Below, in pieces: positions 1 to 53,560 of a stretch of DNA of 64,000 nt. The stretch spans positions 38,918 to 102,917 of the forward strand of contig JAOADT010000001.1 of the NCBI GenBank assembly GCA_026417175.1. Direction: 5' to 3'. The notes beneath the pieces were generated by a model that saw nothing but the letters and a program-made list of their open reading frames with translations, did not search any database and was not told the DNA's origin. This DNA is from Deltaproteobacteria bacterium. GTDB lineage: Bacteria; Desulfobacterota; Syntrophorhabdia; Syntrophorhabdales; JANXAF01. Position 1 is the first letter of the stretch; every line of letters begins with the position of its first letter. The translations under genes and the position numbers were made by a program.

Positions 1-2447
1 GCTTCACGGTAGTAATCCTCTTTGAATCCGTAAGTCCTCATATCCCTGAACAGGATGTAGATATCCACATTAGGGTTTATTTCTTTTAACTTCAGTGCAT
101 TTTTTACGGACTCGGAGCAACATACCCTCGAACAATAATTCCTCTCTTCTGTCCTTGATCCCACACACTGTATCATCACCACTGCACCTGCTGAAATTAC
201 CCTTTCATCTCTTTTTGCAATCAATTCTTCAAGCTCAAGGCCCGTTAACACTTTATCGCTTTGCCCGTATAGGTACTCATTAGGTTTAAATTCCTGAGCT
301 CCTGTGGCTATTACAGTGGCACCATGTCTAATCTCAAATACACCTCTTTCTGATTCTATTTTAGTTAGAAAGTTTCCCACGTATCCAGTGGCTGACAGGA
401 TTTTTGCACCCAGAAAGACATGGATACGGGGCTCACTATATACCCTTTTGACTAAATCCCTAAGATAGGATTGTACATCTTTGCCTTCTATTGTGTAGTA
501 GATCCTTCTGGCCAATCCTCCCAGCTCTCTCTCTTTTTCTATTAAATAAACGTCAAAACCTTGTGAGGCTATAGATAAAGCACAGGTCATTCCGGAAATC
601 CCACCACCTATAACTAAAACCCGTTTGTCTACAGGAAGTTCAAATTCTTGGAGTGGCTCCAAAAGAAGAGCCCTTGCTAAAGACATGCGAAGGAGTTCTT
701 TCGATTTATCAGTTGCCTCTTCTTTCTCTTTTGAATGTACCCATGAGCAATGTTCCCGAATGTTTGCAAATTCGAAAAAGTATTGGTTTAGACCACCCTC
801 TTTTAAAGAATCCCTAAATGTGGGCTCGTGGGTTCTCGGAGTACAAGCCGCCACAATAACCCTGTTTAACCCGTGTTCCTTTATGGCCTCCATTATCTGC
901 TTTGTCGATTCAGTGGAGCACGAGAAAAGCTGACCCTGAGCATGAACTACATTTGGTAACCTCCATGCGTATTCTATGACCGAAGGCACGTCCACGACGC
1001 GCCCAATATTGGCCCCTCAGTAACAGACAAATATACCGACCTTAGGTTCTTCACCTCTAACATCCCGTTCTTCTGGATATACTCTCTGTGTTGCCAACTT
1101 TCCCCTTCTGTAATTCAAAAGTTCACCGCATTTTGTGGCAGCTCCGCTCGATCCGAATACCGATTCGGGTATGTCTATTGGGCCAGAGAAGGCTCCGCTC
1201 ACAAAAATCCCTTTTTTGGAGGTTGTTACTGGAACAAAGCTATCTACTTTACAGAAGCGGTGTTCATTCAATTCTATACCAAACTTCTCTGCTACAAGGC
1301 TAGCTCCCTTGGGTGGACATAATCCCACTGACAAAACAACCATTTCAAATTCTTCATCTTTTACACCCCCATCGGGAGTCGAGTATCTTATCGTTATGTT
1401 ATTGGTAACCGGGTCCTCTTTAAGAATGTTCACATAACTTCTTATAAATCTTACATTTGGAAGAACTTCCGCTCTTTGGAAAAATCTCTCGAAATCCTTC
1501 CCGTAGGACCTTATGTCATTGTGAAAAACTACACATTCCGCCTCAGGATCATGATCTTTAGTTAGAATCACTTGCTTTTGGGTATATGTACAACAGACGG
1601 TAGAACAGTAGCTATTTCCACCTTCAATAACTTGTCTTGACCCTACGCACTGCACCCATGCTATCTTATGCGGATGCCTCAAATCCGAAGATCTTCTTAT
1701 CTCACCCTCGTATGGTCCAGTAGAACTCAATATTCTCTCGTAATCCATACTTGTGACCACGTTTTTAAATTTTCCGTACTTGTACTCATCTCTTAATCTG
1801 GGATCGTAAGGTTCAAAACCTAACGAAAGGATTATTGCTCCAACATTTATCTCTACCTTTTCTGGCTTTGCTGAGAAGTCTATCGCTTCATGCTTACATA
1901 CAGCCTCGCATATTTTACATTTCTTCTCTTTGAGATACAGACAGTTTTCGTCAATGTATGTTATTAGGGGTATGGCCTGAGAAAAGTAGATATGTACGGC
2001 TTTGTTCTTTGAGATCTCCTGATTAAAAGGATCTGGGATTTTCACAGGACAATATTCTACGCAAGTTGTGCAACCAGTACATTTATCTTCCCGGATGTAA
2101 CGGGGTTTCTTAACGAGCGTTACGCGAAAGTCTCCTGCTTCTCCTTCCACGTCGGACACTTCAGTGTAAGTTAAAACCTTTATATTAGGGTGCCGGCCGA
2201 CCTCGACCAGTTTAGGTGAAAGTATTCAGATGGAACATTCATTAGTTGGAAAAGTTTTGTCCAATTGAGCCATGTGACCACCGATAGAGGGGGCACTATC
2301 TACAAGAATTACTCTGAATCCGGAGTTTGCGAGATCAAGGGATGCCTGAATTCCACTTATTCCTCCCCCTACAACGAGAACATCTCCATAATTTTCTCTA
2401 TTTATCATTGTCCTGAACTTAGGAACTTCTAATATCTTCCTTTCCAT
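1..2447 (-). CDS. HdrA-like FAD/Fe-S oxidoreductase (BamE-like). Selenoprotein with two in-frame UGA codons. The 3' end runs off the window start.
   Basis: ORFs 2226..2447 and 1017..2159, plus the frame 3..1016, form one reading frame. I checked 3..1016 codon by codon and found no stop. The only interruptions are TGA at 2226..2228 and 1017..1019. The frame is colinear with the uninterrupted 1036-aa paralogue at 28536..31646 ([25 protein letters not shown](E/D)CS, KPRYI..CTGC). Both TGAs align with Cys in the paralogue: CSMC -> CSI-U and VCHCG -> VCY-U-G. Confidence 0.85.
986..1002 (-). promoter_or_regulatory. SECIS-like stem-loop downstream of UGA 1017..1019
   Basis: On the minus strand, GCGCGTC-GTG-GACGTGC forms a 7-bp stem (one G.U pair) with loop GUG. 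It starts 14 nt after the UGA. Confidence 0.45.
2193..2210 (-). promoter_or_regulatory. SECIS-like stem-loop downstream of UGA 2226..2228
   Basis: On the minus strand, CTGGTC-GAGGTC-GGCCGG forms a 6-bp stem (two G.U pairs) with loop GAGGUC. It starts 15 nt after the UGA. Confidence 0.4.
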
Positions 2448-2468: not shown

Positions 2469-3278
2469 TTAGTTAGACATTACTTCACGAAATCCTATCT
2501 TTTCAGGATAGGAAAAGATACTAAAACTATTCTTACGAGCCCGACCGACAAGTGTTATCCCGATCTTTTTCGCATAGGATATGGCTCCTTCTGTCGGTGA
2601 ACGCCTCGTTACAAGAATAGCTACCTTTAGTCTTGCAGCTTTGAAAACCATCTCTGATGATATCCTTCCCGTCGTTAGAAGAATCTTATCCTTGGTTTCA
2701 ACGCCCTGAAGAAGACATTCTCCAGCGATCTTATCTATAGTGTTGTGCCTTCCTATATCGTCTGCTATGATAAGCAAATCTGTGGGATCCGCAAGTGCTG
2801 ATGTATGTATTCCCTTTGCATCTCTTTCCGATTCAACGTAATGGTTGAATTTGGCGATGAGATTTAGAAGTTCACTTTCTGAAATACTGAACATTGAATC
2901 AATTTTCTCCTTTTCTCTTCTAAAAACCGCTCCCCCCCCTAAACCTACGGGAATGGTTTTCGTTTCTTTAGGTATTGGGGTATCCTCTGGAATACTCACA
3001 TCAACTTCTTTACCATCCTTTGTCCATTTAATATCCTTTAAATCGTGGAGTTTCAAAATCAAACCTTCAAGATAAAGATAGCCACAAATCAAAGAATCCA
3101 ATTTCTCTGGAGTACAAAGCACATTTACAAGCTCCGTGCCGTTAACCTTTACCTTGATTTCTTTCTCTTTAGGAACGCTTGCGGTTCCTAAAGTAAATCC
3201 TTCTTCAGAATATGAGACACATGGCACATGAGCGACCATCTTTTCTTTGTTCGGAGCATTAAGCGCACTTTTTTTCAT
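2469..3278 (-). CDS. fdhD: FdhD/NarQ-family sulfurtransferase (formate dehydrogenase accessory protein FdhD-like)
   Basis: 269-aa ORF with the family-typical DDIGRHNTIDK ... TGRISSEMV region. Its ATG (3276..3278) overlaps the TGA (3275..3277) of the upstream HdrD-like gene (ATGA coupling). Confidence 0.8.
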   Translation of the reverse strand: MKKSALNAPNKEKMVAHVPCVSYSEEGFTLGTASVPKEKEIKVKVNGTELVNVLCTPEKLDSLICGYLYLEGLILKLHDLKDIKWTKDGKEVDVSIPEDTPIPKETKTIPVGLGGGAVFRREKEKIDSMFSISESELLNLIAKFNHYVESERDAKGIHTSALADPTDLLIIADDIGRHNTIDKIAGECLLQGVETKDKILLTTGRISSEMVFKAARLKVAILVTRRSPTEGAISYAKKIGITLVGRARKNSFSIFSYPEKIGFREVMSN

Positions 3279-4426
3279 ACAACTTCCTCAAGGACCTCGG
3301 TTAAATCTTTTATTCCGATCTTTTCGCCAAGACCGAGCACGAGGCGACTATCTTCAAACGCAGTTATACAGTATGGGCAGGATGTTACAAGTTCTTCCGC
3401 TCCCATATTCAGGGCCTGTTCAACCTTTTTGTTTGAAAATCTTTCCTCTTTTGGGGTCTCCATCCACACCCTTCCCCCACCCATACCGCAGCATAAGCTT
3501 TCCATCTTTGACTCTTCGAACTCTATCAATTCAAGACCAGGGATAGCTTTTAAAATTTCTCTTGGCTCATCAAATACCTTGTTATGCCTACCTAGATAAC
3601 AAGGATCATGATACGCGATCCTCTTTCGGTAATGACCATTTATCCTGAGCTTACCTTCTTTAAGAAGTTTGTAAAAAAACTGGGTCACATGGATAACCTC
3701 AAAGTTAACCATGAATTGAGGATATTCATTCTTGAACGTATGAAAACAATGAGGAGACGAGGTAATTATCCTTTTAACCCCATTCTCTATGAAAGTCTTT
3801 ATGTTCTCTTTTGCAAGACGTACATAAAGATCCTCATTTCCAGTCTTTCTTATACTTTCTCCGCAGCAGTTTTCCTTTTCTCCTAGCAAGCCGAAATCGA
3901 CTCTGGCTTTATCTAAAATTTTTACTACTGCCATCGCAACCCTTTTAAGTCTCGGATCGTAAGAAAGGTAACAGCAGGGAAAATAGAGGTATTCGGTTTT
4001 ATCATCAAAATCCTTAACAGGAAGACCTTCAGCCCATTCTTTCCTTTTTTGTCTCTCCTCGTTAAAAGGGTTTCCGCGAGACTGAAGACCTGCATTTATG
4101 GTCCTTATGGGCTTTACTGGTCCGGGGTACACATTATATCTTGTGGCAATTCTTCTTAAAGCCACCATATCATCTATTTGTTTAACATCCCTTGGACATA
4201 AGGTAGGACATCTTCCGCAAGTGGTACATCTCCATATTTCTTCCTTCTCTATCTCGCTCAATCCAAAAAGAGCTTCACGAACTATCCTTCTTACACTGAA
4301 TCTAGTTACATCATTCCAGGGGCATAAAGTATCGCATTTTCCACACTGAAAACAGTTTTGAACAGCCTCACCACCTGACTCTCTAATCTCATCTATTACT
4401 TCTTTAAAAGGTGCAACTACTTCCAT
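3275..4426 (-). CDS. HdrD-like Fe-S / CCG-domain protein (BamD-like)
   Basis: 383 aa. Two ferredoxin motifs (CFQCGKCDTLCP, CTTCGRCPTLCP) are followed by two Cys-rich CCG motifs (NCCGESIRK, LCCGMGGG). Paralogue of 31668..32819. Confidence 0.8.
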   Translation of the reverse strand: MEVVAPFKEVIDEIRESGGEAVQNCFQCGKCDTLCPWNDVTRFSVRRIVREALFGLSEIEKEEIWRCTTCGRCPTLCPRDVKQIDDMVALRRIATRYNVYPGPVKPIRTINAGLQSRGNPFNEERQKRKEWAEGLPVKDFDDKTEYLYFPCCYLSYDPRLKRVAMAVVKILDKARVDFGLLGEKENCCGESIRKTGNEDLYVRLAKENIKTFIENGVKRIITSSPHCFHTFKNEYPQFMVNFEVIHVTQFFYKLLKEGKLRINGHYRKRIAYHDPCYLGRHNKVFDEPREILKAIPGLELIEFEESKMESLCCGMGGGRVWMETPKEERFSNKKVEQALNMGAEELVTSCPYCITAFEDSRLVLGLGEKIGIKDLTEVLEEVV

Positions 4427-4429
4427 GAC

Positions 4430-4981
4430 TTATCCTTTCTTTGAAAGTCTATAGACCGCATCAAGGACTTTATCCCAACCGTATCTATCTATTAGCGACT
4501 GAACTCCTGTATCCATTTCCTCAGGTGTAGCCTCTTCTTCGACTTCTTCTTCTCTTTCCTCGTATGTAATGGCGTCCACGAGACACCACTTGGCACACAT
4601 GGGTTTATCCAAAGGAGGGTCGTCCTCGCACATATCACACTTGAGCGGAAGTCCAGAGTCAGGTTCTTTAAAGATGTCCCTAGAAGGACAGGAAGCACCA
4701 CAAAAACTGCAAACACTTATGCCATCTCCATAATTGCTCTGAGGTCTTTCATCAAGGAAGTAGACCGGTCTTCCCGCGCACTCAGCACTAGTGTAGAAAC
4801 TCGATTTTACGGGCACGAACACATTCTTTAGCTCATTTCTGAAAACGTGTATCCTCGCTCTGGCCGGGTTGACGTTACTATATTTGGGATTGGCATGAAA
4901 GGCAGCACATGCGACTTCGCATGCCCTGCAACCCATGCATTTGTTGAGATCTATTTTTAATACCTTTACCTTCCTCTTCAT
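4430..4981 (-). CDS. 4Fe-4S dicluster protein (BamC-like small subunit of the AOR-family enzyme)
   Basis: 183 aa with CMGCRACEVAC, CSFCGASCP and CDMCEDD..CAKWC cysteine clusters. Paralogue of 32832..33371. Lies immediately downstream of the AOR gene. Confidence 0.75.
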   Translation of the reverse strand: MKRKVKVLKIDLNKCMGCRACEVACAAFHANPKYSNVNPARARIHVFRNELKNVFVPVKSSFYTSAECAGRPVYFLDERPQSNYGDGISVCSFCGASCPSRDIFKEPDSGLPLKCDMCEDDPPLDKPMCAKWCLVDAITYEEREEEVEEEATPEEMDTGVQSLIDRYGWDKVLDAVYRLSKKG

Positions 4982-4993
4982 GGCACCGCTCCT

Positions 4994-6961
4994 CTATTCA
5001 TCCTTTAATATTCCTCTATTTACAAAATCATCGTAGACATAATCGAGGTCAAGGTTTTTCAAGGTTTCTTTGGTTGGGATCCCATCCTGATTCCACCCTC
5101 TGTATTTATAATACTCGTCCATTAACTTCTGTTCATAATCGGGAAATCTCTTTTTCCAATGATCTTCCGGCGGCTTCTCATCCTTTCTTCTCAAGCCTCT
5201 TCTTATATTATTTGCCCTAACCAAGTTTCTGACTCTAGTTGCAATCTTCCACAGTTCATTTTCATCTACATCCAACCCTGCACCGTAAGACACAAATAGA
5301 GGAAGATTGTGAATATGGTAAGGAGGCTTTATAGGAAATGAAGAAACACCAGCACACAAACCTAAAGAATCATCAATATAATGCATTGTTTCCTGCCATT
5401 CTACAAGTTCACAAACAAGATCAGGTGGGGGCCAGAAAGGAAAAACCTTACCCTCTTCTCCCCATTCCAGAACAAACTGTTTGAACCTTTCTTCTTTCCC
5501 AGTGGGAATCTGTATCCAGTCACTCACAAATTGCTCTCTTATTTCCCTTGGTAGGGGTGCTTGGGGAATCTGTCCCTCGATCTGGGTGATATTTATTTTC
5601 TCTCCTGTGGACCACATTATGTAATAAATGGGGTTTAACATTCCCAATTTTATTGGTACCTGCTCGTGTTTTTTTATTGTGTTGTGATCAAAAGCCTCTG
5701 CTCCCCTTCCTATTCTTCTTGCCGCCCAGTAAACTCCGTCTGCCAAAACATCTCCTATACCTTCCCTTCTAACTATACGCTCCAAAAGCCAGAAGAATCT
5801 CTCCTTCTTATCTCTTGGGAAGCCCTCCATGTCACTGTCTGTGAGTATTCCATTTTCGTACAATTCTATCGCAAAAGCCATTACCTGTGGTGCGGTGAAA
5901 CCATCTACCCCGTAATGTTGAGCGCGGGAAAGGATCTGAAAACCAAAGTCCAAATCGTCTACCTCTGCGGCCATTACGTATGTCAACTTTGTGAAACACT
6001 TGAGTATATAAGTGGGGTATCCTGGAACCTCTATTATACCGGCGCATCTCACAGGGCAGTTATAACAACTAATAAGTCTCTTCTTTACACTTTCCATAGT
6101 ATCGGCCCATCTTTTTTCCACTTCTTTGTTCCAGAAACCTTTTCTTCTTTGTCTGGCGTGACCCCATGCAAAGCTATCAAGATGCCATTCCTCGTCATGA
6201 AGGGCCATTTCTTGGGGTGAACCTATATAAGCAAGTATTGGAGGCACACCAGGAATTGGATTATTAAGCCGATATTGGATATAATCGAGAACCTTGTTGC
6301 ACTCATTAATAAACTCATAAGGTTTAGCGACGTTTATATCCTTCGTTCCCCTAACAGCTATAGCTTTTAACTTTTTGTCTCCCATCACTGCACCAAGTCC
6401 AAGCCTGCTCGCACTTCCTCTATGCGTCTCAATTGAAGCAAAAAAGACTCTGTTTTCTCCAGCTAGTCCTATAGATATAACTTGTGCTCTGGGTTCATTG
6501 AGCTCCTCTCTTATGGCCTCTGCTGTCTCATAAGTGCTTTTCCCTTGGAGATGTCTCGCATCCCTTATTTCAACCTTATCATTATTGACCCAAATGTACA
6601 CCCAGTCTGGGGCCTTACCCTTTACTATAATTTTGTCATAACCAGCAAATTTCAACTCTGGTGCCCAATAACCACCCATAATTGAGAAACCAAAAAGAGA
6701 ATTCTGCGGTGATAGTGATGTTATAATAGTCCGGTTAGCGGCAGGTGCTGGTGTACTAACTAAAAGGCCTCCACTAAAAATAAGTATGTTTTCGGAAGAG
6801 AATGGTTGAACTTCAGGAGAAACTCTATCCCACAGTATTTTTGCATTTGTACCAAGTCCTCCAAGATACATTTCAGTCATCTGAGGGTCGGTTTGAATTT
6901 TTTCTATGTTTCCCGTAGAAAGGTCTATTTCCAGAAAATACCCTGTTTCCGCATATCTCAT
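4994..6961 (-). CDS. Aldehyde:ferredoxin oxidoreductase (AOR)-family tungsto/molybdopterin enzyme (BamB-like)
   Basis: 655 aa. The N-terminus MRYAETGYFLEIDLSTGNIEK...GGLGTNAKILWD and the GENRV / GAVMGDK motifs are typical of the AOR family. Paralogue of 33389..35353. Confidence 0.85.
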   Translation of the reverse strand: MRYAETGYFLEIDLSTGNIEKIQTDPQMTEMYLGGLGTNAKILWDRVSPEVQPFSSENILIFSGGLLVSTPAPAANRTIITSLSPQNSLFGFSIMGGYWAPELKFAGYDKIIVKGKAPDWVYIWVNNDKVEIRDARHLQGKSTYETAEAIREELNEPRAQVISIGLAGENRVFFASIETHRGSASRLGLGAVMGDKKLKAIAVRGTKDINVAKPYEFINECNKVLDYIQYRLNNPIPGVPPILAYIGSPQEMALHDEEWHLDSFAWGHARQRRKGFWNKEVEKRWADTMESVKKRLISCYNCPVRCAGIIEVPGYPTYILKCFTKLTYVMAAEVDDLDFGFQILSRAQHYGVDGFTAPQVMAFAIELYENGILTDSDMEGFPRDKKERFFWLLERIVRREGIGDVLADGVYWAARRIGRGAEAFDHNTIKKHEQVPIKLGMLNPIYYIMWSTGEKINITQIEGQIPQAPLPREIREQFVSDWIQIPTGKEERFKQFVLEWGEEGKVFPFWPPPDLVCELVEWQETMHYIDDSLGLCAGVSSFPIKPPYHIHNLPLFVSYGAGLDVDENELWKIATRVRNLVRANNIRRGLRRKDEKPPEDHWKKRFPDYEQKLMDEYYKYRGWNQDGIPTKETLKNLDLDYVYDDFVNRGILKDE

Positions 6962-12135: not shown

Positions 12136-12411
12136 TCAACCGAACCTGTATTGGACTCCAAACTCTCCACCCGGGTACCCCCAAGATATTGCTCCTCGTA
12201 CACATGCAATCATGCATGTACCACACTCTAAGCATCCCGCATACTCAACAGTCATTTCATTTGTCTCCTCTATCAGCTTGTACAGATTTCCTGGACACAC
12301 GTTAAGGCAAAACCTCATTTTGCATGTTTTGCATATGGTATTGTTTATTGTTATATGACTTACTTTGTCATTTTTGATTATATTCTTTGCAAGCTTTTCT
12401 TCGGTTTTCAT
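12136..12411 (-). CDS. FixX-type ferredoxin-like protein
   Basis: The ATG at 12411 overlaps the fixC stop (ATGA). C-terminus CKTCKMRFCLNVCP...CLECGTCMIAC...WGYP. The longer ORF-track start at 12471 lies inside fixC. Confidence 0.8.
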   Translation of the reverse strand: MKTEEKLAKNIIKNDKVSHITINNTICKTCKMRFCLNVCPGNLYKLIEETNEMTVEYAGCLECGTCMIACVRGAISWGYPGGEFGVQYRFG

Positions 12412-13694
12412 ATCTTCCTTACCCTCAACAAGGTCTTTATGTTGCGCAGTCTTAAGAAGTCCTTCCCCCAATCCTTAAGGGTTTTCCAAATCCTTTCCTT
12501 TGGTTCCTCCCCAAAATAGACAAGCCTACCGAAAATCTCGGTCATTTTCGAGGGATAGAAACCGAAAAAGTCTTTATTGTCTAAAAAAGATGGCATCTCT
12601 TCAAAGGATTTAAGATCCTTAAGGACAAAGCTTCCACTCAATCTTTCCATGTAACCTGAGAGAACCCTTTCCGAAAAATCGCCACGACGGAAGGCCTCCT
12701 TTATTGTGTCTGCAGCCAAAAATCCTGAAGCAATCGCGAAGTCCATACCCCTCACTGTTATACCCATATTGAGAGCAAAACCTGCTGCGTCACCAGTGAT
12801 CAGAAACCCATTTCCGTATAGTTTTTCCACCCCTTTTAATCCAGACTCGGGGATTATATGCGCTGAATATTCGACTGTGTTGCCACCAGCAATAAGGTTT
12901 TTAACTTCATCTTTATCCTTGAATCTTTCTAGTAGTTCGTAAATTTTCATACTGGGATACATGTCCATAAGGGAGCTTATCTTCACAACAACACCTATCG
13001 AAATACTTTCCTTATTCGTATAAAGAAAACCACCGCCAAATACCCCTCCTGTCACATCCCCTACGAAAAGATGAGCAACTCCTTCTCCGCTTCCCACATT
13101 AAATCTCTCATTTATCCTATGTTCTGGCAATTCTATTATCTCTTTCACCCCAACTGCATAAGAATCAGCGGACAGCTCTTTTTTCATTCCCAACTTTCGC
13201 GTAAGCTGAGAAAGAACCCCTTCTGCGATTACTACAACCCTGGCGTATAGTCTTTCCCCACCAACATATACGCCTTCTACCCTTCCGTTGTCCTTTAGTA
13301 TGCCATCAACCCTGTATTTTGGAATAACGAATATACCCGAGTTTGACACCTTTTCAGACAGATATTTATCAAATTTTGCTCTCAGTACGGTATAGCTATG
13401 TTCCTCTTCTTTTAATTTTTTAGAAATGAAATCTAAAGTAAGGGACTCATTGTCTTTCCCTAGAAATGACCATCTCTCTCTTACAACCTTCCTCTCGAAC
13501 GGTGCGCCTTCTAACATATCGCCAATTAGGGGTTTTATCGGTTTTAGGTAAAGTCTTCCCCCAGTCATGTTTTTGCTCCCGGGAAATTCGCCCCTTTCAA
13601 GTACAAGGACGTTAAGTCCTTCATTTTTCAGTCCATAGGCACAGGATAGTCCAGCTAAACCCCCACCGACGATTATGACATCTAATTTTTCCAT
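12408..13694 (-). CDS. FixC-type FAD-dependent oxidoreductase (ETF:quinone oxidoreductase-like)
   Basis: 428 aa. N-terminal dinucleotide fold DVIIVGGGLAGLSCAY. Lies between etfA and fixX. Confidence 0.85.
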   Translation of the reverse strand: MEKLDVIIVGGGLAGLSCAYGLKNEGLNVLVLERGEFPGSKNMTGGRLYLKPIKPLIGDMLEGAPFERKVVRERWSFLGKDNESLTLDFISKKLKEEEHSYTVLRAKFDKYLSEKVSNSGIFVIPKYRVDGILKDNGRVEGVYVGGERLYARVVVIAEGVLSQLTRKLGMKKELSADSYAVGVKEIIELPEHRINERFNVGSGEGVAHLFVGDVTGGVFGGGFLYTNKESISIGVVVKISSLMDMYPSMKIYELLERFKDKDEVKNLIAGGNTVEYSAHIIPESGLKGVEKLYGNGFLITGDAAGFALNMGITVRGMDFAIASGFLAADTIKEAFRRGDFSERVLSGYMERLSGSFVLKDLKSFEEMPSFLDNKDFFGFYPSKMTEIFGRLVYFGEEPKERIWKTLKDWGKDFLRLRNIKTLLRVRKI

Positions 13695-14674
13695 TAGACT
13701 TCTTCCTTAGCCTTTTTTAGTTCCTCTTTAAGGACTGGGAGAATCGCAAATATATCGTCCACTATTCCGTAATCTGCAATGTTGAATATAGGTGCGTTAG
13801 GGTCCGAGTTTATAGCAACTATCGTCTTAGATGTATCTATTCCCATCGTATGATGGATTGCTCCTGAAACACCGCAACCTATATACAAAACTGGAGAAAC
13901 GGTTTTTCCGCTCTTTCCTATTTGTTCCTCATATTCTCGCCAATTCGCATCAACAACAGAGCGTGAAGCACCAACTCTCCCTCCCATAATATCTGCTATC
14001 TCTTCTAATATCTTGAAGTTCTCAGGAGCTTTCATACCTCTTCCACCGCATATGATGAAGTCCGCTTCCTGCAAATCTACTTTTTTTTCCTCTTTTCTCT
14101 CCGCTCTCAAAAATCTTATTTTTTTGTCTTTCTTTGTTTCAATTTTTTCCCTTATCACTTCTCCGGATAAACTAGGTTCGCTTACGGAAAAACTGTTTGG
14201 TCTAAGTGTTGTAACCACTTTGTTTCCTTCCTTAACCTCTACGTAGGAAAGTACCCTGCCTCCGAACAATGGTTTTTTGAATAGAAGCCTTCCGTTTTCT
14301 AATTCAAATCCAGTCACATCTGCAAGAATAGCCCAGTCAAGCATTCCTGAAAGCTTAGGAAGTATAAATCTTCCATAACCCGCGTGGGACCCTATGACGA
14401 AGGAGGAACTTGTTTTCTCAACTAGCATATGAAGTATCTCAGCGTAATTATCTATCGTAAAATCCGTGAGATACTCTTCGTCTACTACGTGTACGTAATC
14501 AGCGTGACCTTTCACATACTCAGCTAGAATTTCTACTTGAAATCCTATAATAGCCACATGAAGCTTCGATGAAAAAAATTTTCTTAATCTTTTCCCCGCT
14601 TCAATAGCTTCATAAGAGACCTTTCTTACAGATCTGTCCTTTAATTCTATGTAGACCAATACATCCTTTGCCAT
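13694..14674 (-). CDS. etfA: Electron transfer flavoprotein alpha subunit (EtfA/FixB)
   Basis: 326 aa. C-terminal FAD-binding region GASRSVVDANW...QIGKSGKTVSPVLYIGCGVSGAIHH. Confidence 0.9.
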   Translation of the reverse strand: MAKDVLVYIELKDRSVRKVSYEAIEAGKRLRKFFSSKLHVAIIGFQVEILAEYVKGHADYVHVVDEEYLTDFTIDNYAEILHMLVEKTSSSFVIGSHAGYGRFILPKLSGMLDWAILADVTGFELENGRLLFKKPLFGGRVLSYVEVKEGNKVVTTLRPNSFSVSEPSLSGEVIREKIETKKDKKIRFLRAERKEEKKVDLQEADFIICGGRGMKAPENFKILEEIADIMGGRVGASRSVVDANWREYEEQIGKSGKTVSPVLYIGCGVSGAIHHTMGIDTSKTIVAINSDPNAPIFNIADYGIVDDIFAILPVLKEELKKAKEEV

Positions 14675-14688
14675 CTTTCCACCTCTCT

Positions 14689-15465
14689 TTATATGACCTT
14701 AGCTTCCTGTTTGAGAAGGGATATCAATTTTTTAACTTTCTCTTCTGGGCTTTGTCCCTCAATTATTTTAACGGCTGGCCTTTTTCCTGGAAACTCAAAC
14801 CGAACTATCTCAGTTTTTTGAGTTAAGGGAATAGATAAAAGAGAATAAGGGTCTACGAAAGCTATTTGAGCCCTCATAGCCTTCATAACGCCCGTAATTG
14901 CAGGAACTCTCGGTTCATTTATCCCCTTTCTAAGAGAGAAAAGGGCGGGGAGTTCCACTTCATAGCCGAAAAAACTACCATCTATCTCAGAATCAACAAC
15001 GACTTTATTCGTGTCCATGACTTCTATTTTTACAACCGAACCAACGTATGGAATCTTAAGATTTTCTGCTATGAGCACTCCTACCACACCATTTTCGTCA
15101 TCCATAGCTCTTTCACCGCAAAAAATCAAATTAAAACCTTCTTTTTCGGCGAAGCCAGATAATACCTTTGCAGTAAAGTAAGGATCCCAAATGTTGTATT
15201 TTTCCGTTTCAATAAGTACAGCTCTGTCTACTCCCATTGCGATTGATGTCCTAAGCACCTCCTGAGCTTTCCTAGATCCTAAACTTACAGCCACAACTTC
15301 ACAGTTCTTGACTTTTTCCTTTACTCTTATTGCTTCTTCTATTGCAAATTCGTCAAAAAAATTGAGGCTAAATCGTTCTTCAAAATCCAGAGATTTTTTA
15401 TCGTCCTGTATGTTAATCTTTGCTTCGGAATCTAGCACTTGTTTCACAAACACAAGGATCTTCAA
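14689..15465 (-). CDS. etfB: Electron transfer flavoprotein beta subunit (EtfB/FixA)
   Basis: MKILVFVKQV... Start is the second TTG (15465), 6 nt after AAGGAGG. The track start at 15471 is too close to the SD. Confidence 0.88.
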   Translation of the reverse strand: MKILVFVKQVLDSEAKINIQDDKKSLDFEERFSLNFFDEFAIEEAIRVKEKVKNCEVVAVSLGSRKAQEVLRTSIAMGVDRAVLIETEKYNIWDPYFTAKVLSGFAEKEGFNLIFCGERAMDDENGVVGVLIAENLKIPYVGSVVKIEVMDTNKVVVDSEIDGSFFGYEVELPALFSLRKGINEPRVPAITGVMKAMRAQIAFVDPYSLLSIPLTQKTEIVRFEFPGKRPAVKIIEGQSPEEKVKKLISLLKQEAKVI

Positions 15466-15481
15466 TTTCAACCTCCTTACC

Positions 15482-16630
15482 TTAAAGTTTTCCGATTATA
15501 CTCCTTCCGATAAAATCCTTCAACACCTCATGTGTACCGCCTCCGTAAAGGAGGAATCTCGCATCTCTGAAGTATCTTTGAGGATTATATTCGTAAGCAA
15601 AAGCGTTAGCTCCGTAAATCCTTGTTACCTCATCTACTACTTTTAAACATACCTCAGTCGCGAACATCTTCGCTTCAGCTGCTATTGTTCTTGCGTCCAT
15701 TCTGTTTTCAAGAAGCCACGCTCCGTAATATACCATAAGTTTTGCTGCGTTCATTAATGTATCCATCTCTGCGAACTTCTCCCTTATGAGCTGAAAGTTC
15801 CCGATAGGTTGACCAAAAGCTATTCTTTTGCGGGCGAATTCCAGACCTTCTTCATAAGCGGCTCTGGCCAACCCTAACGCCATTGCACCTGTCATAAGTC
15901 TCACTTCATCAAGTATCTCACCCACATACTGTACCCCTTTTCCAAGTTCCTCACCCAGAAAGTTTTCATCAGGTACCCATACATTGTCGAAAATGAGCTC
16001 ACCTGTCACTGTACCTCTACAGCCCAGTTTACGTATAATCTGTCCGCTCGAAAACCCTGGAGTACCTTTTTCAACCAAGAAGAAGTTTAATCCTTTGAGA
16101 CCCAATGATGGATCAACAGTTGCGAGCACTGTACAAAAATCACATATAGGTCCGTTTGTTATCCACATTTTTGTACCGTTTATTCTCCATCCATCGCCGT
16201 CTTTGACTGCCCTAGTTCTTGTTGAACCGAGGTCAGATCCTGATTGGTCTTCAGTAAAACAGATAGTTGCTATCTTCTCACCTCTCATTGCCGGATATAG
16301 ACATCTCTCTTTTATAGCATCATTCCCAAATCTATAGATAAAATAAGTTCCCATTAAAATGTTCATTATTACACTTTGGGCAAAACCGACAGAGCCTCTA
16401 GTAATCTCCTCATAGAATATCATACACATTACCTTGTCCGCATTCATGCCGCCTATCTCTTCAGGGTATCTTAGTCCCAAATACCCAAGCTTAGAAAACT
16501 CTCGCCATAGGTCCCAGGGAAATTCGTCTTTTTCATCTATATCTTTGGCCTTTGGTATTATCATTTTGTTAACAGTGTCTCTTATGGTTTTTCTAAAAAA
16601 TTCTTGCTCCTCTGTTAACTTGAAGTCCAT
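15482..16630 (-). CDS. Acyl-CoA dehydrogenase
   Basis: 382 aa. LTEEQ..., ...GSDLGS..., WITNG and a C-terminal ..LYGGGTHEV.. typical of the ACAD family. Confidence 0.9.
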   Translation of the reverse strand: MDFKLTEEQEFFRKTIRDTVNKMIIPKAKDIDEKDEFPWDLWREFSKLGYLGLRYPEEIGGMNADKVMCMIFYEEITRGSVGFAQSVIMNILMGTYFIYRFGNDAIKERCLYPAMRGEKIATICFTEDQSGSDLGSTRTRAVKDGDGWRINGTKMWITNGPICDFCTVLATVDPSLGLKGLNFFLVEKGTPGFSSGQIIRKLGCRGTVTGELIFDNVWVPDENFLGEELGKGVQYVGEILDEVRLMTGAMALGLARAAYEEGLEFARKRIAFGQPIGNFQLIREKFAEMDTLMNAAKLMVYYGAWLLENRMDARTIAAEAKMFATEVCLKVVDEVTRIYGANAFAYEYNPQRYFRDARFLLYGGGTHEVLKDFIGRSIIGKL

Positions 16631-23078: not shown

Positions 23079-25100
23079 ATGATAACATCTATTATGGTCC
23101 AGGATTTTCTCGAGTCTATTCTTGTAGTATTTGGAATATCTGCTTCCATAATTTACTTACTCGGAAAAATAAAACTTCCCTCCATAGTTGGTTTCCTCTT
23201 AGCCGGAACCATTATAGGACCTTATGGGATGGGGCTTATTCAAAGCTTAAAAGACGTTGAGATGATCGCAGAAATTGGAATTATCCTTCTTATGTTCACA
23301 ATAGGTGTTGAATTCTCACTGACTAAACTTTACGGGCTGAAGAAAGAAGTGTTCTTGTTTGGTCCCTTACAAATACTGCTTACAACAACTATCTCTGCCG
23401 TTTTGGCACACATCATTTTAGATATCCATTTGAGAAACGCCACTTTCTATGGGTTTGTCGTGAGTCTAAGTAGCACTGCTATTGTCATGAAACTTTTAGC
23501 TGAGAAAGGCGAGCTCAATACAAGACACGGGAAGATATGTGTGGGCATTTTATTATTTCAAGACATATGCGTAATTCCTTTGATGTTGTTGACTAGGCTT
23601 ATTTCAACTCATAACGAACAACCTTTAGGAGATTATCTGGTGGTTCTTCTTAAGTCTTTTTTGATACTCTTTGTAGTTTTTCTATTCTCTAGGACGGCCA
23701 TTCCCTATTTTCTTCATGAAATTGTCAAAACAAAAATTAGGGAGCTTTTTATCCTCGTAACAATCTTTGTTTGTCTTGGTACAGCCTATGTAACCTCCAA
23801 GTTGGGTCTTTCTTTAGCCCTTGGAGCCTTTCTTGCAGGAGTTATAATATCAGAATCGGAATACTCATCTCAGGCGCTCTCCGATATTTTGCCTTTTAAA
23901 GAAATATTTTCGGGCATATTCTTCATTTCTATTGGCATGTTACTGGATCTTGAGTTTTTAAAACTAAGGATCACAGATGAATTCGTGCTTATCTTGACAG
24001 TTATTTTTATTAAGATTCTGTCAGTTGTTTTTGCAGTTTACCCCTTTGTAAAATCCTTAAAAATTTCTCTTAAGACAGGTTTTTCTCTCGCTCAGATAGG
24101 AGAATTTTCATTCATCCTTTCTTTTGCCGGAAGGGCGCTAGGTCTTATAGATTCACAAGAATACCAGAGCTTTATTGCAATCACCGTTGCTTCCATGTTT
24201 ATAACACCTGCAATATTGAGATACTCTCCTAAAATAGTTGATGAACTGGTAAAATTGAAGCTTTTCCACCATTTTGAAAAGGTGACCAGAATAAAGGACA
24301 GTGAAATCTCTGTGAGAAAAATGAATCACGTCATAATAATCGGATTCGGGCTAAATGGTAGAAATCTTGCCAGGGTACTTAAAGATTCCGGAATAAGTTA
24401 TGTAATCCTGGATCTAAATCCGGACACTGTTAGAAAATCAAAAAGAAAAGGGGAACCTATATACTATGGAGATGGAACAAGTTCAGAAATCCTTCGCAAG
24501 CTTGGAATCCTTTGGGCAAAGATACTTGTCGTAGCCATCTCTGATCCCACATCCACAAAAAGGATTGTGGAAATGGCTAGGACCGAAAATCCCAGAATTC
24601 ACATAATTGTTAGAACCCGTTACGTCTCAGATATAGACGAGCTTTTGAATGTTGGTGCGAACGAGGTAATCCCTGAAGAATTCGAAACATCTCTTGAGAT
24701 ATTTGGACGGGTTTTACATCATTTTGGAGTTCCGAGAAACAAGATACTGGAAACAATAGACCGTATAAGACAAGAGGGATACAAAACTCTACTTTTAGAT
24801 ACACCCCTAAAAACAAGGGTCGGCTTGGAGTGCACAATGGTGGAAGGTCTTGAAATGGATAGCTACATTGTGGAAAAGGATTCCTGGTTAAAGGGAAAAT
24901 CGATAAAGGCCATAAATCTCAGGGCAAAAACAGGAGCAACAATTATCGCCGTAAAAAGGGGTGAAGAAAACATTCTAAATCCAGACCCAGACCTTGTTTT
25001 GAATGAGGGTGACATAGTCGTTTATTTAGGTACAAAAGAACAAGTTACACTAACCTTCCATTTTTTAAGTGGAAGGCCCTCCGGACAGAGCCTGAGTTAA
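23079..25100 (+). CDS. CPA2-family monovalent cation:proton antiporter (Kef-type) with C-terminal RCK (TrkA-N / TrkA-C) domains
   Basis: 673 aa. About 12 hydrophobic segments, then VIIIGFGLNGRNLARVL (a GxGxxG NAD fold) and a TrkA-C-like C-terminus. Confidence 0.85.
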   Translation: MITSIMVQDFLESILVVFGISASIIYLLGKIKLPSIVGFLLAGTIIGPYGMGLIQSLKDVEMIAEIGIILLMFTIGVEFSLTKLYGLKKEVFLFGPLQILLTTTISAVLAHIILDIHLRNATFYGFVVSLSSTAIVMKLLAEKGELNTRHGKICVGILLFQDICVIPLMLLTRLISTHNEQPLGDYLVVLLKSFLILFVVFLFSRTAIPYFLHEIVKTKIRELFILVTIFVCLGTAYVTSKLGLSLALGAFLAGVIISESEYSSQALSDILPFKEIFSGIFFISIGMLLDLEFLKLRITDEFVLILTVIFIKILSVVFAVYPFVKSLKISLKTGFSLAQIGEFSFILSFAGRALGLIDSQEYQSFIAITVASMFITPAILRYSPKIVDELVKLKLFHHFEKVTRIKDSEISVRKMNHVIIIGFGLNGRNLARVLKDSGISYVILDLNPDTVRKSKRKGEPIYYGDGTSSEILRKLGILWAKILVVAISDPTSTKRIVEMARTENPRIHIIVRTRYVSDIDELLNVGANEVIPEEFETSLEIFGRVLHHFGVPRNKILETIDRIRQEGYKTLLLDTPLKTRVGLECTMVEGLEMDSYIVEKDSWLKGKSIKAINLRAKTGATIIAVKRGEENILNPDPDLVLNEGDIVVYLGTKEQVTLTFHFLSGRPSGQSLS

Positions 25101-25661
25101 GAGGTATAGCGCCTGGGCGTAAGAAGTCGGACAGAGCGGGAAGCATTCTTTACACTTATCACATTCTTTTAAAGCGATCTCAGGGATAAAACTTATCTCT
25201 CTTTTCACCCCGCTTTGAACAAACGATATGGCATATTTTTTCTTGACTTCAGAGCAGTATCTAACACATAGACCACACAGGATGCAGAATATAGGTTCCT
25301 TCCCAAATTTTTCTTCTTTTGCACCATATTCTTCTTTTAGTTTGATAAGTTCGGGAGATCCTGGCGCACGTGCAAGAAGAAGCTCCACTATAATCCGCCT
25401 TATTTTTTCAACCTCTGGACTCCTTGTTTTCACAACAAGCCCTTCTTCAACTGGGTAAAGACAAGAGACAACATAATTTTTTCTTCCCCTACTTTCAATT
25501 TCTACTGTGCATAGTCTGCAACCGCCATAGGGCTCAAGATCTTTATGGTAGCAAAGTGTGGGAATATCTATACCTTCCCTTAAAGCTACCTGAAGGATGG
25601 TCATACCTTTTTCTGCCTTACATTCCTTCCCGTCTATGGTTATATTCACTACATCTGACAT
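25065..25661 (-). CDS. [2Fe-2S]/[4Fe-4S] protein resembling the NuoG N-terminus (BamI-like)
   Basis: Start MSDVVNITIDGKE at 25661, 2 nt after the NuoF-like stop. Motifs CYHKDLEPYGGCRLCTVEI, CILCGLCVRYC and CDKCKECFPLCP. Confidence 0.8.
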   Translation of the reverse strand: MSDVVNITIDGKECKAEKGMTILQVALREGIDIPTLCYHKDLEPYGGCRLCTVEIESRGRKNYVVSCLYPVEEGLVVKTRSPEVEKIRRIIVELLLARAPGSPELIKLKEEYGAKEEKFGKEPIFCILCGLCVRYCSEVKKKYAISFVQSGVKREISFIPEIALKECDKCKECFPLCPTSYAQALYLLTQALSGGPST

Positions 25662-25663
25662 CT

Positions 25664-27313
25664 TTACTTCTCCTTGACTAATCGTGATTCGAACTCTTTC
25701 CAAAAGTATTTCAAAGCACTCTCCAAGGGAGATGAAGCTGTTCTTCCCAATGCGCACAGAGAAGCCTCTTTTTGAACATCGCAGATTTCTCTTATCGTTT
25801 CCACATCCTGATACGTGCCGGAACCGTCCTTTATCTTTTTGAGGAGTTTTCTTATCTGTCTTATACCCTCCCTACAAGGGACACACTTACCACATGATTC
25901 TGTTGATAGAAAATCCAGAAAATAAGAGACTAGTTCAAGCATATCATCTTTTTCGTCAAGAACAAGTAACCCACCAGCGCCAATAGGTGCTCCTAATTTG
26001 GCACATGCGTCAAAATCTAAAGGGGTATCTATTAGTTCCTTCGGAATTGATCCACCCATGGCAGACCCAAAATGAACAGCCTTTAAATCATTTCCGTTTC
26101 CAGTTCCTCCACCTAAGTCGAATACAATCTCCCTCAGACTCATCCCAAAAGGTACCTCAATCACTCCGGCATTTTTTATTCTTCCCGAAAGCGATATAAG
26201 CTTTGTCCCCTTGCTCCTCTCGGTGCCTATTTTCGAGTACCATTCAGCCCCATTTTCTATAATGAGGGGTACATTGGCCCATGTTTCCACGTTATTTAAA
26301 TTACTAGGTTTTTCGTAGATCCCGCTTACCGATGTCCTTATGTATTTGGGTCTAGGCTCAGGAATCTTTCCTTCGATCGACCTCATTAAAGCACTAGATT
26401 CACCGCTAACGAATATGCCTATATCCAGGTGAATCTCCACATCGAAGTCGAACCCGCTTCCCAATATGTTCTTTCCAATAAAACCATATTCTCTCGCTTT
26501 GCTAATAGCTGTTTCTATATTTTTTAATAAGTCTGGTGCATCATGCCTGGTATAGATAAATCCTTGTCTGGCCCCTATGGCATAAGCCCCAATTATTAGA
26601 CCTTCGAGAACTATGTGGGGATTGCCCCCGAGGATTGCTCTATCCATGTATGCACCAGGTTCACCCTCATGTCCATTAACGATCACATATTTGATGTCAC
26701 TTTTTGCGTTTCTTGTAGTCTCCCACTTCTGACCAGCAGGAAAGCCGCCACCTCCTCTCCCTCTTAAATTGGACTTCTTGATCTCCTCTAAAACATCAGT
26801 TGGAGACATTTGGGTTAGCGCCTTTACTAAAGCAGAATAACCTCCAAGTGCTATGTAATCGTCAATACTTTGGGGATCAATCTTTGTGTTATATCCGAGG
26901 ATAAGCCTAGTCTGTCTATTATAGAACGGTATATCCTTAAGGTGAGGGGTCTTCCCTACTTTTTCATCTTCGTAGACAAGTCTGTCAACAATTCTATTTC
27001 TCAATATGGTTTCCTCAATTATTTCTGTTGCATCTTTTTCTTTCACTTTAAGGTAACATATCTCTTCAGGATAAATGATTATACTTGGCCCCCAGGAACA
27101 CATCCCATGACATCCCGTGAGTTTGACCTTGATTTTTTCTTCAAGACCCTTTTTACCAAGCTCATCCTTTAGTGCGCTTGCAATCTTTTTTCCATCTTTA
27201 CTTGAACATCCTCCCCCGCCACAAACTGATATTATCCGTTCCGAAGAAGCCATTATAGACTGTACCCTATTTTTCAATTTTAAAAAGTCTTCATATGAGC
27301 TTATTCTCTGCAT
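25664..27313 (-). CDS. NuoF-like NAD(P)H-binding FMN/Fe-S flavoprotein with an N-terminal thioredoxin-like [2Fe-2S] domain (BamH-like)
   Basis: 549 aa. GRGGGGFPAGQKW (FMN site) and ESCGKCVPCREG ([4Fe-4S]). N-terminal CGGGGCSS...CHGMCSWGP. Confidence 0.9.
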   Translation of the reverse strand: MQRISSYEDFLKLKNRVQSIMASSERIISVCGGGGCSSKDGKKIASALKDELGKKGLEEKIKVKLTGCHGMCSWGPSIIIYPEEICYLKVKEKDATEIIEETILRNRIVDRLVYEDEKVGKTPHLKDIPFYNRQTRLILGYNTKIDPQSIDDYIALGGYSALVKALTQMSPTDVLEEIKKSNLRGRGGGGFPAGQKWETTRNAKSDIKYVIVNGHEGEPGAYMDRAILGGNPHIVLEGLIIGAYAIGARQGFIYTRHDAPDLLKNIETAISKAREYGFIGKNILGSGFDFDVEIHLDIGIFVSGESSALMRSIEGKIPEPRPKYIRTSVSGIYEKPSNLNNVETWANVPLIIENGAEWYSKIGTERSKGTKLISLSGRIKNAGVIEVPFGMSLREIVFDLGGGTGNGNDLKAVHFGSAMGGSIPKELIDTPLDFDACAKLGAPIGAGGLLVLDEKDDMLELVSYFLDFLSTESCGKCVPCREGIRQIRKLLKKIKDGSGTYQDVETIREICDVQKEASLCALGRTASSPLESALKYFWKEFESRLVKEK

Positions 27314-27324
27314 AGCCTTTCCTT

Positions 27325-27771
27325 TTATCCAATTTTCTTAAGTATTCCTTCTATATCATCAGGTTTTACATTTCCATATACTTCACCATCTATCTCTATT
27401 TCCGGCCCAGAAGCACAGCGTCCGGAACAGGAGGATAATTCTAAGCTAAACTTCATGTCAGGAGTTGAATCACCTACTTTAATCCCAAGGAGGTTTTCAA
27501 GTTTTTCTACAACTTCCCTTCCACCCCTTATATAGCAGGACACCCCCGAACAAACTTTTATCACATGCTCAGCTTTGGGTTTCAGGCTAAACGTTTTGTA
27601 AAAAGTTGCTATTCGCATCACTTCATTCACTGGAACAGACAATCTCTTACTGAGATAAAAAATAGATTCTCTAGGTATATACCCCTTTTCGTGTTGAACG
27701 TCCATTAACATCTCGATGAGAAAATTTCTTCTTCTGGAATACTTCTCTATGATGCTTTCCAAATAATCCAT
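27325..27771 (-). CDS. NuoE-like thioredoxin-fold [2Fe-2S] protein (BamG-like)
   Basis: 148 aa. CSGVSCYIRGG ... CSGRCASGPEIEIDG. Confidence 0.88.
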   Translation of the reverse strand: MDYLESIIEKYSRRRNFLIEMLMDVQHEKGYIPRESIFYLSKRLSVPVNEVMRIATFYKTFSLKPKAEHVIKVCSGVSCYIRGGREVVEKLENLLGIKVGDSTPDMKFSLELSSCSGRCASGPEIEIDGEVYGNVKPDDIEGILKKIG

Positions 27772-27774
27772 AGA

Positions 27775-28527: not shown

Positions 28528-28535
28528 AGATCCTC

Positions 28536-31646: not shown

Positions 31647-31667
31647 GTCTCTTTCCTCTTTTCTTTT

Positions 31668-32819: not shown

Positions 32820-32831
32820 GTCTAACCCTCA

Positions 32832-33371
32832 TTACAACTCTTTCGCTACTTTTGCAATTGTATCCACGACTTTCTCAAGACCATGTCTTTTTAACAGAGT
32901 AGCTACAGATACTTGGAGTTCGTCGGTCGTATGTGGTTCCACCTCTACTTCCCTCTCGATGTATGTAAGGGCTCCCGAATGACATTCCTTTACACACATC
33001 GGAATGTCCGAATCTTCTCCTTCACATGCATCGCATTTAAATGGAAGACCAGACTCCGGATCTTTGAACGCATCCCTTGAGGGACAGGCTGCTGGACAGA
33101 ATTCGCATGTACCAAATTCTCGACCCCGGATAGTAAAAGAGTTTCTGGCGTTGCATTCAGCTTCAGTGTACTGACCTGCTCTGATCGCCACGTAGTTGTC
33201 CGCAAACTCATCGATTATCACCCGAATCCTCGATTTTGCAGGGTTCACACTTGAATATTTGGGGTTCGCGTGGACCTGTGAACATACAATCTCGCAGCAT
33301 CTACAACCATTGCACTTGTCCATATCAAATCTTATTTCCTTTATCTTCTTTTTTACTTTTTGTCCTTCCAT
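32832..33371 (-). CDS. 4Fe-4S dicluster protein (BamC-like)
   Basis: 179 aa. CNGCRCCEIVC, CEFCPAACP and CDACEGE..CVKEC. Confidence 0.8.
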   Translation of the reverse strand: MEGQKVKKKIKEIRFDMDKCNGCRCCEIVCSQVHANPKYSSVNPAKSRIRVIIDEFADNYVAIRAGQYTEAECNARNSFTIRGREFGTCEFCPAACPSRDAFKDPESGLPFKCDACEGEDSDIPMCVKECHSGALTYIEREVEVEPHTTDELQVSVATLLKRHGLEKVVDTIAKVAKEL

Positions 33372-33388
33372 GTCTTACGCTCCTTTAC

Positions 33389-53511: not shown

Positions 53512-53560
53512 AGATTATCCTCCTTTGATAATAAGAAGAAAGGGGGTGTTTACCCCCTTT

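Follow-up and report, generated by a model that had tools for sequence, protein, structure and literature searches.

A bamE gene of class II benzoyl-CoA reductase with two probable selenocysteine codons, each followed by its own predicted in-frame hairpin

HdrA is a classical selenoprotein family (PMC1794560). In Methanococcus maripaludis HdrA, the selenocysteine (Sec) at position 197 forms a selenenylsulfide in cryo-electron microscopy (cryo-EM; PMC13518236); it corresponds to Cys197 of the HdrA of M. thermolithotrophicus and M. wolfeii (PMC9012536) and is the second residue of a redox-active Cys-x-x-Cys/Sec pair between flavin adenine dinucleotide (FAD) and the cluster of the N-terminal domain. 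BamE of Desulfococcus multivorans is listed as a selenoprotein bearing a Sec insertion sequence (SECIS), and in such bacterial BamE and HdrA genes (dmul_C24500/10, PMC5109826; HdrA family, PMC1794560) an in-frame UGA is followed directly by a SECIS. No second Sec is mentioned for bacterial HdrA or BamE selenoproteins in PMC1794560, PMC1976440, PMC5109826 or PMC13188914. Here we describe a bamE gene (copy 1; 3..2447, minus strand) in a 64-kb stretch of DNA from contig JAOADT010000001.1 of a Deltaproteobacteria bacterium, referred to below as the window. This gene carries two in-frame UGA codons, both of which very probably encode Sec in a functional BamE, each directed by its own downstream hairpin. 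Site 1 (codon 74; 2226..2228, minus strand; C-S-I-U) is an already known Sec position, equivalent to Cys/Sec197 of HdrA and Cys62 of Geobacter metallireducens BamE. Only site 2 (codon 477; 1017..1019, minus strand; V-C-Y-U-G) is unusual; it falls on the second Cys of the invariant CxCG motif, where strand beta-1 of the HdrA-N-terminal-like domain ends. Like the D. multivorans and HdrA genes, the window gene has a UGA with a SECIS-like element behind it; in addition, it has a second probable Sec codon 403 codons downstream, with a second, unrelated hairpin.

BamE of the G. metallireducens Bam[(BC)2DEFGHI]2 complex is a fused double HdrA, with a first thioredoxin-reductase-like domain (TrxR1) holding a ferredoxin insert, an HdrA-N-like domain and a second thioredoxin-reductase-like domain (TrxR2) (10.64898/2026.04.10.717634). 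The window gene shares this architecture, the upstream bamB-C-D order, the CxxC pair beside shuttle cluster E3 and the CxCG motif, and its 815 in-window codons run from TrxR1 with its ferredoxin insert through the N-like domain and into part of TrxR2. HdrA structures matched the product in two pieces (phmmer, E 1e-171 to 1.5e-176): residues 23-440 with HdrA 154-568, comprising the thioredoxin-reductase-like core and inserted ferredoxin domain, and residues 459-638 with HdrA 3-182, comprising the N-terminal cluster domain and the start of the second core. Pfam found Pyr_redox_2, FAD and Fer4, that is, FAD/NAD(P) Rossmann and 4Fe-4S domains. The product thus has the HdrA-family set of a thioredoxin-reductase-like FAD domain, an inserted ferredoxin, an N-terminal cluster domain and the canonical Sec position. 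BamE orthologues and the window paralogue are 1036-1040 amino acids (aa) long, within the roughly 1000-1050 aa expected of a fused double HdrA. Upstream lie bamB, bamC and bamD (3275..6961); bamF falls beyond the window start and is downstream of bamE in the syntenic loci L001, L002, L085 and L088. From these structure matches, domains and neighbours the gene is assigned as bamE, encoding the HdrA-type bifurcating subunit of a tungsten/selenium (W/Se) class II benzoyl-CoA reductase. The label given by the initial annotation, HdrA-like, was right as to family and is narrowed here to BamE rather than a generic HdrA.

Translation of 3..2447 on the minus strand begins at an ATG at 2447, downstream of a ribosome-binding site (GGGGAGG), and runs for 815 codons until the frame exits at the window start. 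Exactly two stops interrupt it, both TGA, at codons 74 and 477, in agreement with the earlier statement that a single frame holds no other stop. Full-length orthologues have 1040 codons, and about 225 C-terminal codons lie outside the window. The open reading frame (ORF) listing of the window splits the gene into pieces at 2226..2447 (73 aa) and 1017..2159 (380 aa); a third, which extends past the window start, is absent from the listing. Public gene callers fragment such genes similarly, into 73 + 377/385 + 556 aa, as had been foreseen for callers that do not model Sec. An internal control is provided by a bamE paralogue (copy 2; 28536..31646, minus strand; 1036 aa), which is 64% identical to copy 1 over 811 aligned positions and has Cys at both sites (C-S-M-C and V-C-H-C-G). 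Alignment to this paralogue places both TGAs on Cys, with identity on both flanks of each, bearing out the proposal that conservation resumes immediately after each TGA.

Homologues were drawn from 80 loci of species-representative genomes and two Logan loci, with 83 BamE genes coming from 80 reference genomes. Codons 74 and 477 are Cys, or TGA at site 1, in the paralogue and in all 83 homologues. Geobacter-type BamE genes in this sample are 63-68% identical to the window BamE. Geobacter BamE, unlike that of the window, has Cys at both positions (C-S-M-C-I-E and V-C-Y/H-C-G), the only Sec being that of BamF (Sec19). The closest orthologues, L001-L003, are 84-87% identical to the window BamE, with TGA at site 1 and Cys at site 2. 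Non-synonymous divergence (dN) was 0.08-0.12, with saturated synonymous divergence (dS), in all three segments of bamE; past the second TGA (codons 478-815) dN was 0.09-0.12 with dS saturated, like the other segments. Conservation also covers the residues that separate each TGA from the next possible start codon. Purifying selection acts downstream of each TGA.

At site 1, residue 74 aligns without gaps to residue 197 of HdrA (5ODC_A). The codon is TGA in about 33 of the 80 sampled BamE genes and Cys in the others, the TGA forms coming from Syntrophorhabdales, Syntrophus, Desulfobacterales, Bacillota, Chloroflexota, Synergistaceae and others. A SECIS-like hairpin, CUGGUCG-AGGU-CGGCCGG (2193..2210, minus strand), begins 18 nt past the U of UGA, where the initial annotation had put it, with a stem of 7 bp and its AGGU loop at +25..+28. 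The same hairpin is present in all sampled Sec-type BamE genes. Across 29 distinct sequences 99.5% of stem cells are paired, one compensatory change replaces C-G with A-U, and a second pair occurs as U.G, U-A or C-G. Inside the stem third codon positions are invariant; outside it they vary. The +9..+51 segment has a mean minimum free energy of -11.4 kcal/mol in Sec forms versus -4.25 in Cys forms, from which the hairpin is missing. When the downstream peptide was recoded with the window's codon usage in 5000 trials, an equally or more stable fold arose in 5.5%, and the hairpin ranks in the top 4.9% among 15,619 codon positions in window genes. Past the site, Sec forms read U-I-L-x-P-K...V-G-R-H and Cys forms C-I-E-S-P-K-x-V-E-C-S-R-H (window 2193..2225; loci L003-L082). 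This difference suggests that the peptide is adapted to the RNA element, such that the SECIS appears to have reshaped the protein sequence past site 1, and it offers a simple signature for sorting Sec-type from Cys-type BamE.

At site 2 the predicted hairpin is GGGCGCGU-C GUG G-ACGUGCCU, that is, GGGCGCGUC-GUG-GACGUGCCU (984..1004, minus strand); the stem-loop reported earlier at 986..1002 is its core. It begins 15 nt past the U, can fold either as a 9-bp stem with 3 nt in the loop or as an 8-bp stem with 5 nt, and presents the loop (C)GUG(G) at +23..+27. Nothing comparable is seen at either site in the Cys paralogue, and the site-2 hairpin is likewise absent from L001-L003, which have Cys there. 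In the stem the window reads GGG CGC GTC GTG GAC GTG CCT, compared with GGA AGG GTA GTG GAT GTA CCA in these Cys orthologues, so that at least six synonymous differences build the stem. Rare codons are used to do so; CGC accounts for 2% of Arg codons. Recoding produced an equally or more stable fold in 0.06% of the 5000 trials (p ~6e-4), and the hairpin ranks in the top 0.4% of the codon positions in window genes.

The double-TGA arrangement recurs in a second lineage. When the 380-aa middle fragment was used as a protein query, it matched P0121, a 377-aa sequence that is 79% identical and ends ...V-G-V-F-V-C-H. Seven distinct sequences make up the 90% cluster of P0121, each with this same end, and 17 Logan contigs are listed for them. 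Fifteen of these contigs (L084-L097; run series SRR277300xx, SRR216194xx and SRR32459162) were examined, and each has TGA at codon 74 as well as at codon 477. They share the gene order of the window (GroES-GroEL-dodecin-bamB-C-D-fdhD-bamE-bamF), and their bamE is 79% identical to that of the window in aa and 71% in nucleotides. Their site-2 hairpin, GGGCGCGUCGUGAACGUGCCC, differs from the window's in two respects, G-C in place of G.U at the base of the stem and a loop-closing pair that is lost through an Asp to Asn codon change, in a context where flanking synonymous sites differ freely. Three distinct site-2 sequences share GGGCGCGUCGUGRACGUGCCY. In a neighbour-joining tree without bootstrap, the window gene, L085/L087 (double-Sec) and L001-L003 (single-Sec) form one clade, in which L085/L087 splits first. 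A single gain followed by a Sec-to-Cys reversion in the sister lineage would be the most economical history, and is favoured because the site-2 hairpins are identical apart from the two differences noted.

Both sites thus combine a Cys-aligned UGA, a downstream stem-loop, conservation at the RNA level and continued coding constraint, and each UGA has its own predicted in-frame SECIS. In each loop of the elements found in the window (AGUU, AGUUU, AGGU and CGUGG) a G is followed by a U; counted from the U of UGA, these lie at about +21 to +31. The loop G and U of the E. coli fdhF element are similarly arranged, and the bSECISearch spacing criterion is reportedly roughly 16-37 nt between UGA and loop. 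A G that is conserved within the apical loop of bacterial SECIS elements has been mentioned before (PMC1794560).

Other genes in the window bear on whether the host decodes Sec. The closest named sequences to the host leucyl-tRNA synthetase are from Syntrophorhabdaceae/Syntrophorhabdales (70-73%), a group that includes syntrophic degraders of aromatic compounds, and the G+C content of the window is 39.8%. An archaeal origin, prompted by a Cpn60_TCP1 match, was ruled out by GroES, GroEL, DnaJ, sigma-70 and DnaG. TGA is the ordinary stop of 15 of the 51 window ORFs, and the code is therefore not reassigned. A scan for long TGA-interrupted frames returned only two further credible cases, both classical selenoproteins. 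The first is bamF of copy 2 (27775..28527, minus strand), an MvhD/FlpD-type selenoprotein with TGA at 28474..28476 (F-V-C-F-W-U-G). This TGA is present in 71 of 71 BamF genes of the fetched loci (L001-L097), even beside an all-Cys BamE, and 72 segments after it, 56 of them distinct and the window copy included, contain an invariant GGCUGGAGUUUCCAG mini-hairpin about 22 nt downstream. The second is a 2-Cys-type peroxiredoxin (56012..56605, plus strand) with TGA at 56156..56158 at the peroxidatic Cys (F-T-F-V-U-P-T-E), followed by a 6-bp hairpin with loop AGUU starting 14 nt past the U of UGA. It belongs to a known selenoprotein family, and ORF callers see only its C-terminal 125 aa. These two genes provide good, if indirect, support for Sec decoding by this genome, as read from the DNA.

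Several observations weigh against double Sec recoding. Site 2 is Cys in 83 of 83 sampled BamE genes, including the three closest orthologues, and the trait is narrow, the tree requiring either one gain and one reversion or two gains. A search of JGI metagenome contigs for a site-2 TGA with the degenerate DNA pattern GTNTGYYAYTGAGGNGYNAAYRTNGG gave one match, L083, which has no ORF, is unrelated and was rejected as a chance match. Only three distinct site-2 hairpin sequences are available, and covariation support is correspondingly thin. Dinucleotide shuffles of 60-nt segments were not significant at the two sites (z -0.6, -0.9), unremarkable values that are explained by the local G+C-rich composition retained in the shuffles. 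High-G+C Cys-type genes often give stable, differently placed folds from the same peptide. Raw site-2 stability across homologues was therefore not discriminating (Cys mean -10.4, s.d. 3.4; window -14.3), and codon-usage-aware and within-window controls were used instead. Rfam returned no SECIS or other relevant family, either for the whole window at gathering thresholds or for 900..2300 at E up to 10; this miss weighs little, because bacterial SECIS hairpins are too short and diverse. Finally, selA, selB, selD and tRNA-Sec were not found within the 64-kb window. The comparative evidence is stronger than the single-sequence fold statistics, and Sec recoding of an intact gene, as the initial annotation proposed in place of a pseudogene, is the best reading given the Cys-aligned TGAs, conserved hairpins, recurrence of the double TGA in an independent lineage and low dN past the second TGA.

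The lack of sel genes in the window, together with the fact that Sec insertion is deduced here from nucleotide data, would also suit a different mode of decoding, in which both UGAs are read by a standard tRNA (a near-cognate Trp or Cys tRNA, or a suppressor) and the hairpins merely stimulate readthrough. We consider this very improbable. Both positions are invariant redox or cluster Cys residues, the signature of Cys/Sec exchange; site 1 has been experimentally observed as Sec in HdrA (PMC13518236), and D. multivorans BamE has been reported as a SECIS-bearing selenoprotein (PMC5109826). The BamF and peroxiredoxin genes of the window carry classical Sec motifs, and the spacing and G/GU loops of the hairpins fit bacterial SECIS elements. 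Alternatively, site 1 could encode Sec and site 2 be a genuine stop. A gene split at codon 477, or decaying from there, would give a truncated N-terminal protein, either alone or beside a C-terminal protein initiated on its own. The uniform Cys at site 2 in the sample, nearest homologues included, speaks for this reading, and gene callers do predict a 556-aa ORF from a GTG 22 nt downstream. However, the TGA and the same hairpin are kept in the 79%-identical lineage, downstream dN is as low as in the rest of the gene, and the family-invariant G-A-N-I-G-R-V, which precedes the first possible start, would be lost; a hairpin built of rare codons moreover stands exactly at SECIS distance. We regard a genuine stop at codon 477 as very improbable. 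Sequencing or assembly error, or a very recent nonsense mutation in this metagenome-assembled genome, would need only one base change from TGT or TGC, and the 73-aa fragment and FdhD of the window are without an exact database record, but the chance of this is negligible given the site-1 TGA in ~33 independent genomes, the site-2 TGA on 15 independent Logan contigs of three run series, the synonymous differences that build an improbable site-2 stem and its conservation at the RNA level.

With both UGAs taken as Sec codons, the site-2 arrangement can be set against other selenoproteins of this electron path. Site 1 aligns gap-free with Sec197 of M. maripaludis HdrA. That protein differs in having a 3'-untranslated-region SECIS, in being a single, dimerizing HdrA rather than a fused pseudo-dimer, and in that no N-domain Sec is reported for it. 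HdrA with more than one Sec is known from Lokiarchaeota, with up to four at five positions, the canonical one included and all at family-conserved Cys, and was stated never to have been seen outside Loki (PMC4989117). Unlike the window gene, with one in-frame bacterial hairpin for each UGA, the Lokiarchaeota genes use one eukaryote-like 3' SECIS for all UGAs. VhuD/FrhD/MvhD-type proteins and Sec19 of BamF belong to a partner subunit on the same electron path and offer a superficially similar C-x-W-U-G after the first beta strand, beside an iron-sulfur (FeS) cluster; archaeal VhuD has two Sec and bacterial forms one (PMC1976440). Homology of site 2 to the MvhD/VhuD/BamF Sec was considered and rejected as unsupported, as BLASTP gave only two short colinear matches (E 0.16-0.22) and HHalign a probability of 1.5%. 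For the BamE N-like domain there was no Pfam FlpD match at E up to 10 and no MvhD among the top 50 Foldseek hits in the PDB. A further Sec at the CxCG of the N-terminal domain, served by an in-frame SECIS of its own, therefore appears to be a new variant, no earlier report having been found for bacterial BamE or HdrA in the open-access literature.

In structural terms, both sites point to the same cluster. An AlphaFold2 model of the paralogue's N-like domain (pLDDT 86.7) superimposes on the HdrA N-terminal domain (5ODC_A) with a TM-score of 0.88. Its five invariant Cys, the C-x-C-G pair behind strand 1 and single residues behind strands 2, 3 and 4, all line the C-terminal edge of its parallel sheet. 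In HdrA, Cys197 is part of a conserved Cys-x-x-Cys pair that is dynamic, and in the crystal it is a ligand of the [4Fe-4S] cluster in the partner protomer's N-terminal domain (PMC9012536); the ligands in this state are three of the five N-domain Cys and residue 197. In cryo-EM states the same residue is engaged in a Cys-Cys or Cys-Sec bridge, or else has an unidentified ligand bound to it (PMC13518236, PMC13580544), and in G. metallireducens BamE the Cys59-Cys62 disulfide is 3.4 A from cluster E3 (bioRxiv 10.64898/2026.04.10.717634). With position 477 among the five cluster-edge Cys, three of them ligands, it is plausible but unproven that Sec477 is either a cluster ligand or an immediate cluster neighbour.

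These observations suggest a scheme in which BamE would be decoded full-length, with the bacterial SelB/tRNA-Sec machinery reading both UGAs, each through its own in-frame hairpin. Sec74 would replace the second Cys of the redox-active CxxC in the first thioredoxin-reductase-like domain. As in HdrA and G. metallireducens BamE, this pair would cycle between dithiol and disulfide states and touch or ligate the mobile shuttle [4Fe-4S] cluster HA3/E3, which would carry the low-potential electron off the bifurcating FAD. Sec477 would replace the second Cys of the invariant CxCG in the domain that holds the same HA3/E3 cluster. Two selenols would then lie in or next to the coordination sphere of one cluster, presumably speeding or tuning thiol/selenol and ligand-exchange chemistry on the low-potential branch. 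We infer Sec insertion itself, the spatial closeness of the two Sec residues and a functional benefit. A further and rather speculative idea, which we think unlikely, is that Sec74 and Sec477 act as a functional pair at E3/HA3, through a ligand swap, Sec477 being exchanged with Sec74 over the conformational cycle, or a transient Se-Se or Se-S bond; it draws on HdrA residue 197, which, from the other half of the dimer, ligates the cluster in one state and bridges in another. If it were true, this BamE would offer a natural case, among flavin-based electron-bifurcating enzymes, of an FeS cluster with a selenolate ligand or a diselenide gate, and would be a natural double 'mutant' marking the N-domain Cys that is active in the thiol/selenol step of HdrA-type bifurcation.

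The arrangement has consequences for annotation and for work on the enzyme. In this lineage a central enzyme in the anaerobic degradation of aromatics appears in gene calls as three pieces (73 + ~380 + ~556 aa) or is taken for a pseudogene, and pathway reconstructions of Syntrophorhabdia-like degraders will consequently miss or miscount BamE. Since bacterial UGA-Sec decoding needs an in-coding hairpin after each UGA, a second Sec needs a second SECIS within a highly conserved peptide; here it appears to have been built into that peptide through its rare codons. Three 2026 structural papers call unresolved the thiol/selenol chemistry between the bifurcating FAD, the CxxC/U pair and the shuttle cluster. 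Selection would have put the more reactive chalcogen on one N-domain Cys besides the canonical site, flagging that residue as redox-relevant and singling out the second Cys of CxCG as a defined target when HdrA and BamE are studied by mutagenesis or structure determination.

All genes directly upstream of bamE are on the minus strand. An fdhD-like sulfurtransferase gene (2469..3278; PF02634, E 6.5e-61) lies between bamD and bamE, a position that is syntenic in L002 and L084-L097. Further upstream are bamD (3275..4426), which by Pfam encodes an HdrD/HdrBC-like protein with two CCG domains, bamC (4430..4981), encoding an FeS protein by Pfam, and bamB (4994..6961), encoding the catalytic subunit, an AOR-family tungsten enzyme with AFOR_N and AFOR_C. 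A second, complete bamBCDEFGHI set is present within the window at 25065..35353. The fdhD-like insertion marks the cluster type of the window's copy 1, L002 and L084-L097; the second Bam cluster of the window and L001 have none. Its putative product may act in maturation of the BamB tungsten cofactor.

Two types of Bam cluster can be distinguished (copy-1 type: L001 13016..13714, L002 4443..5216, L085 12946..13713; copy-2 type: window 25065..28527). In the copy-1 type, with double- or single-Sec BamE, the terminal BamF has a 2x[4Fe-4S] ferredoxin domain and no bamGHI follows; in the copy-2 type, BamF ends in a helix-turn-helix-like tail, and bamG, bamH and bamI come next. Compared with Geobacter, the copy-1-type clusters of the relatives differ in the fdhD-like insert before bamE, the ferredoxin-domain BamF and the lack of bamGHI directly downstream. 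Given this BamF domain and the absence of bamGHI, the electron input of the copy-1 enzyme may differ from that of copy 2. Genes for electron-transfer flavoprotein (ETF) alpha and beta, an ETF-quinone oxidoreductase (ETF-QO)-like flavoprotein and an acyl-CoA dehydrogenase are located at 12408..16630 (minus strand), a few kb from the Bam cluster, and this ETF neighbourhood is kept in L001, L085 and L088. Their proximity is consistent with a recent proposal in which ETF serves class II benzoyl-CoA reductase as its high-potential acceptor. Two genes lie immediately upstream of the second Bam cluster, one for a 590-aa DUF362 protein (36213..37985, minus strand) and one for an IclR-type regulator (35367..36134), a candidate controller of that cluster. 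Unrelated to the Sec codons, a chaperone-usher type set comprising two SCPU-domain proteins, a PapD-like chaperone and an usher is encoded at 50148..54043 (minus strand).

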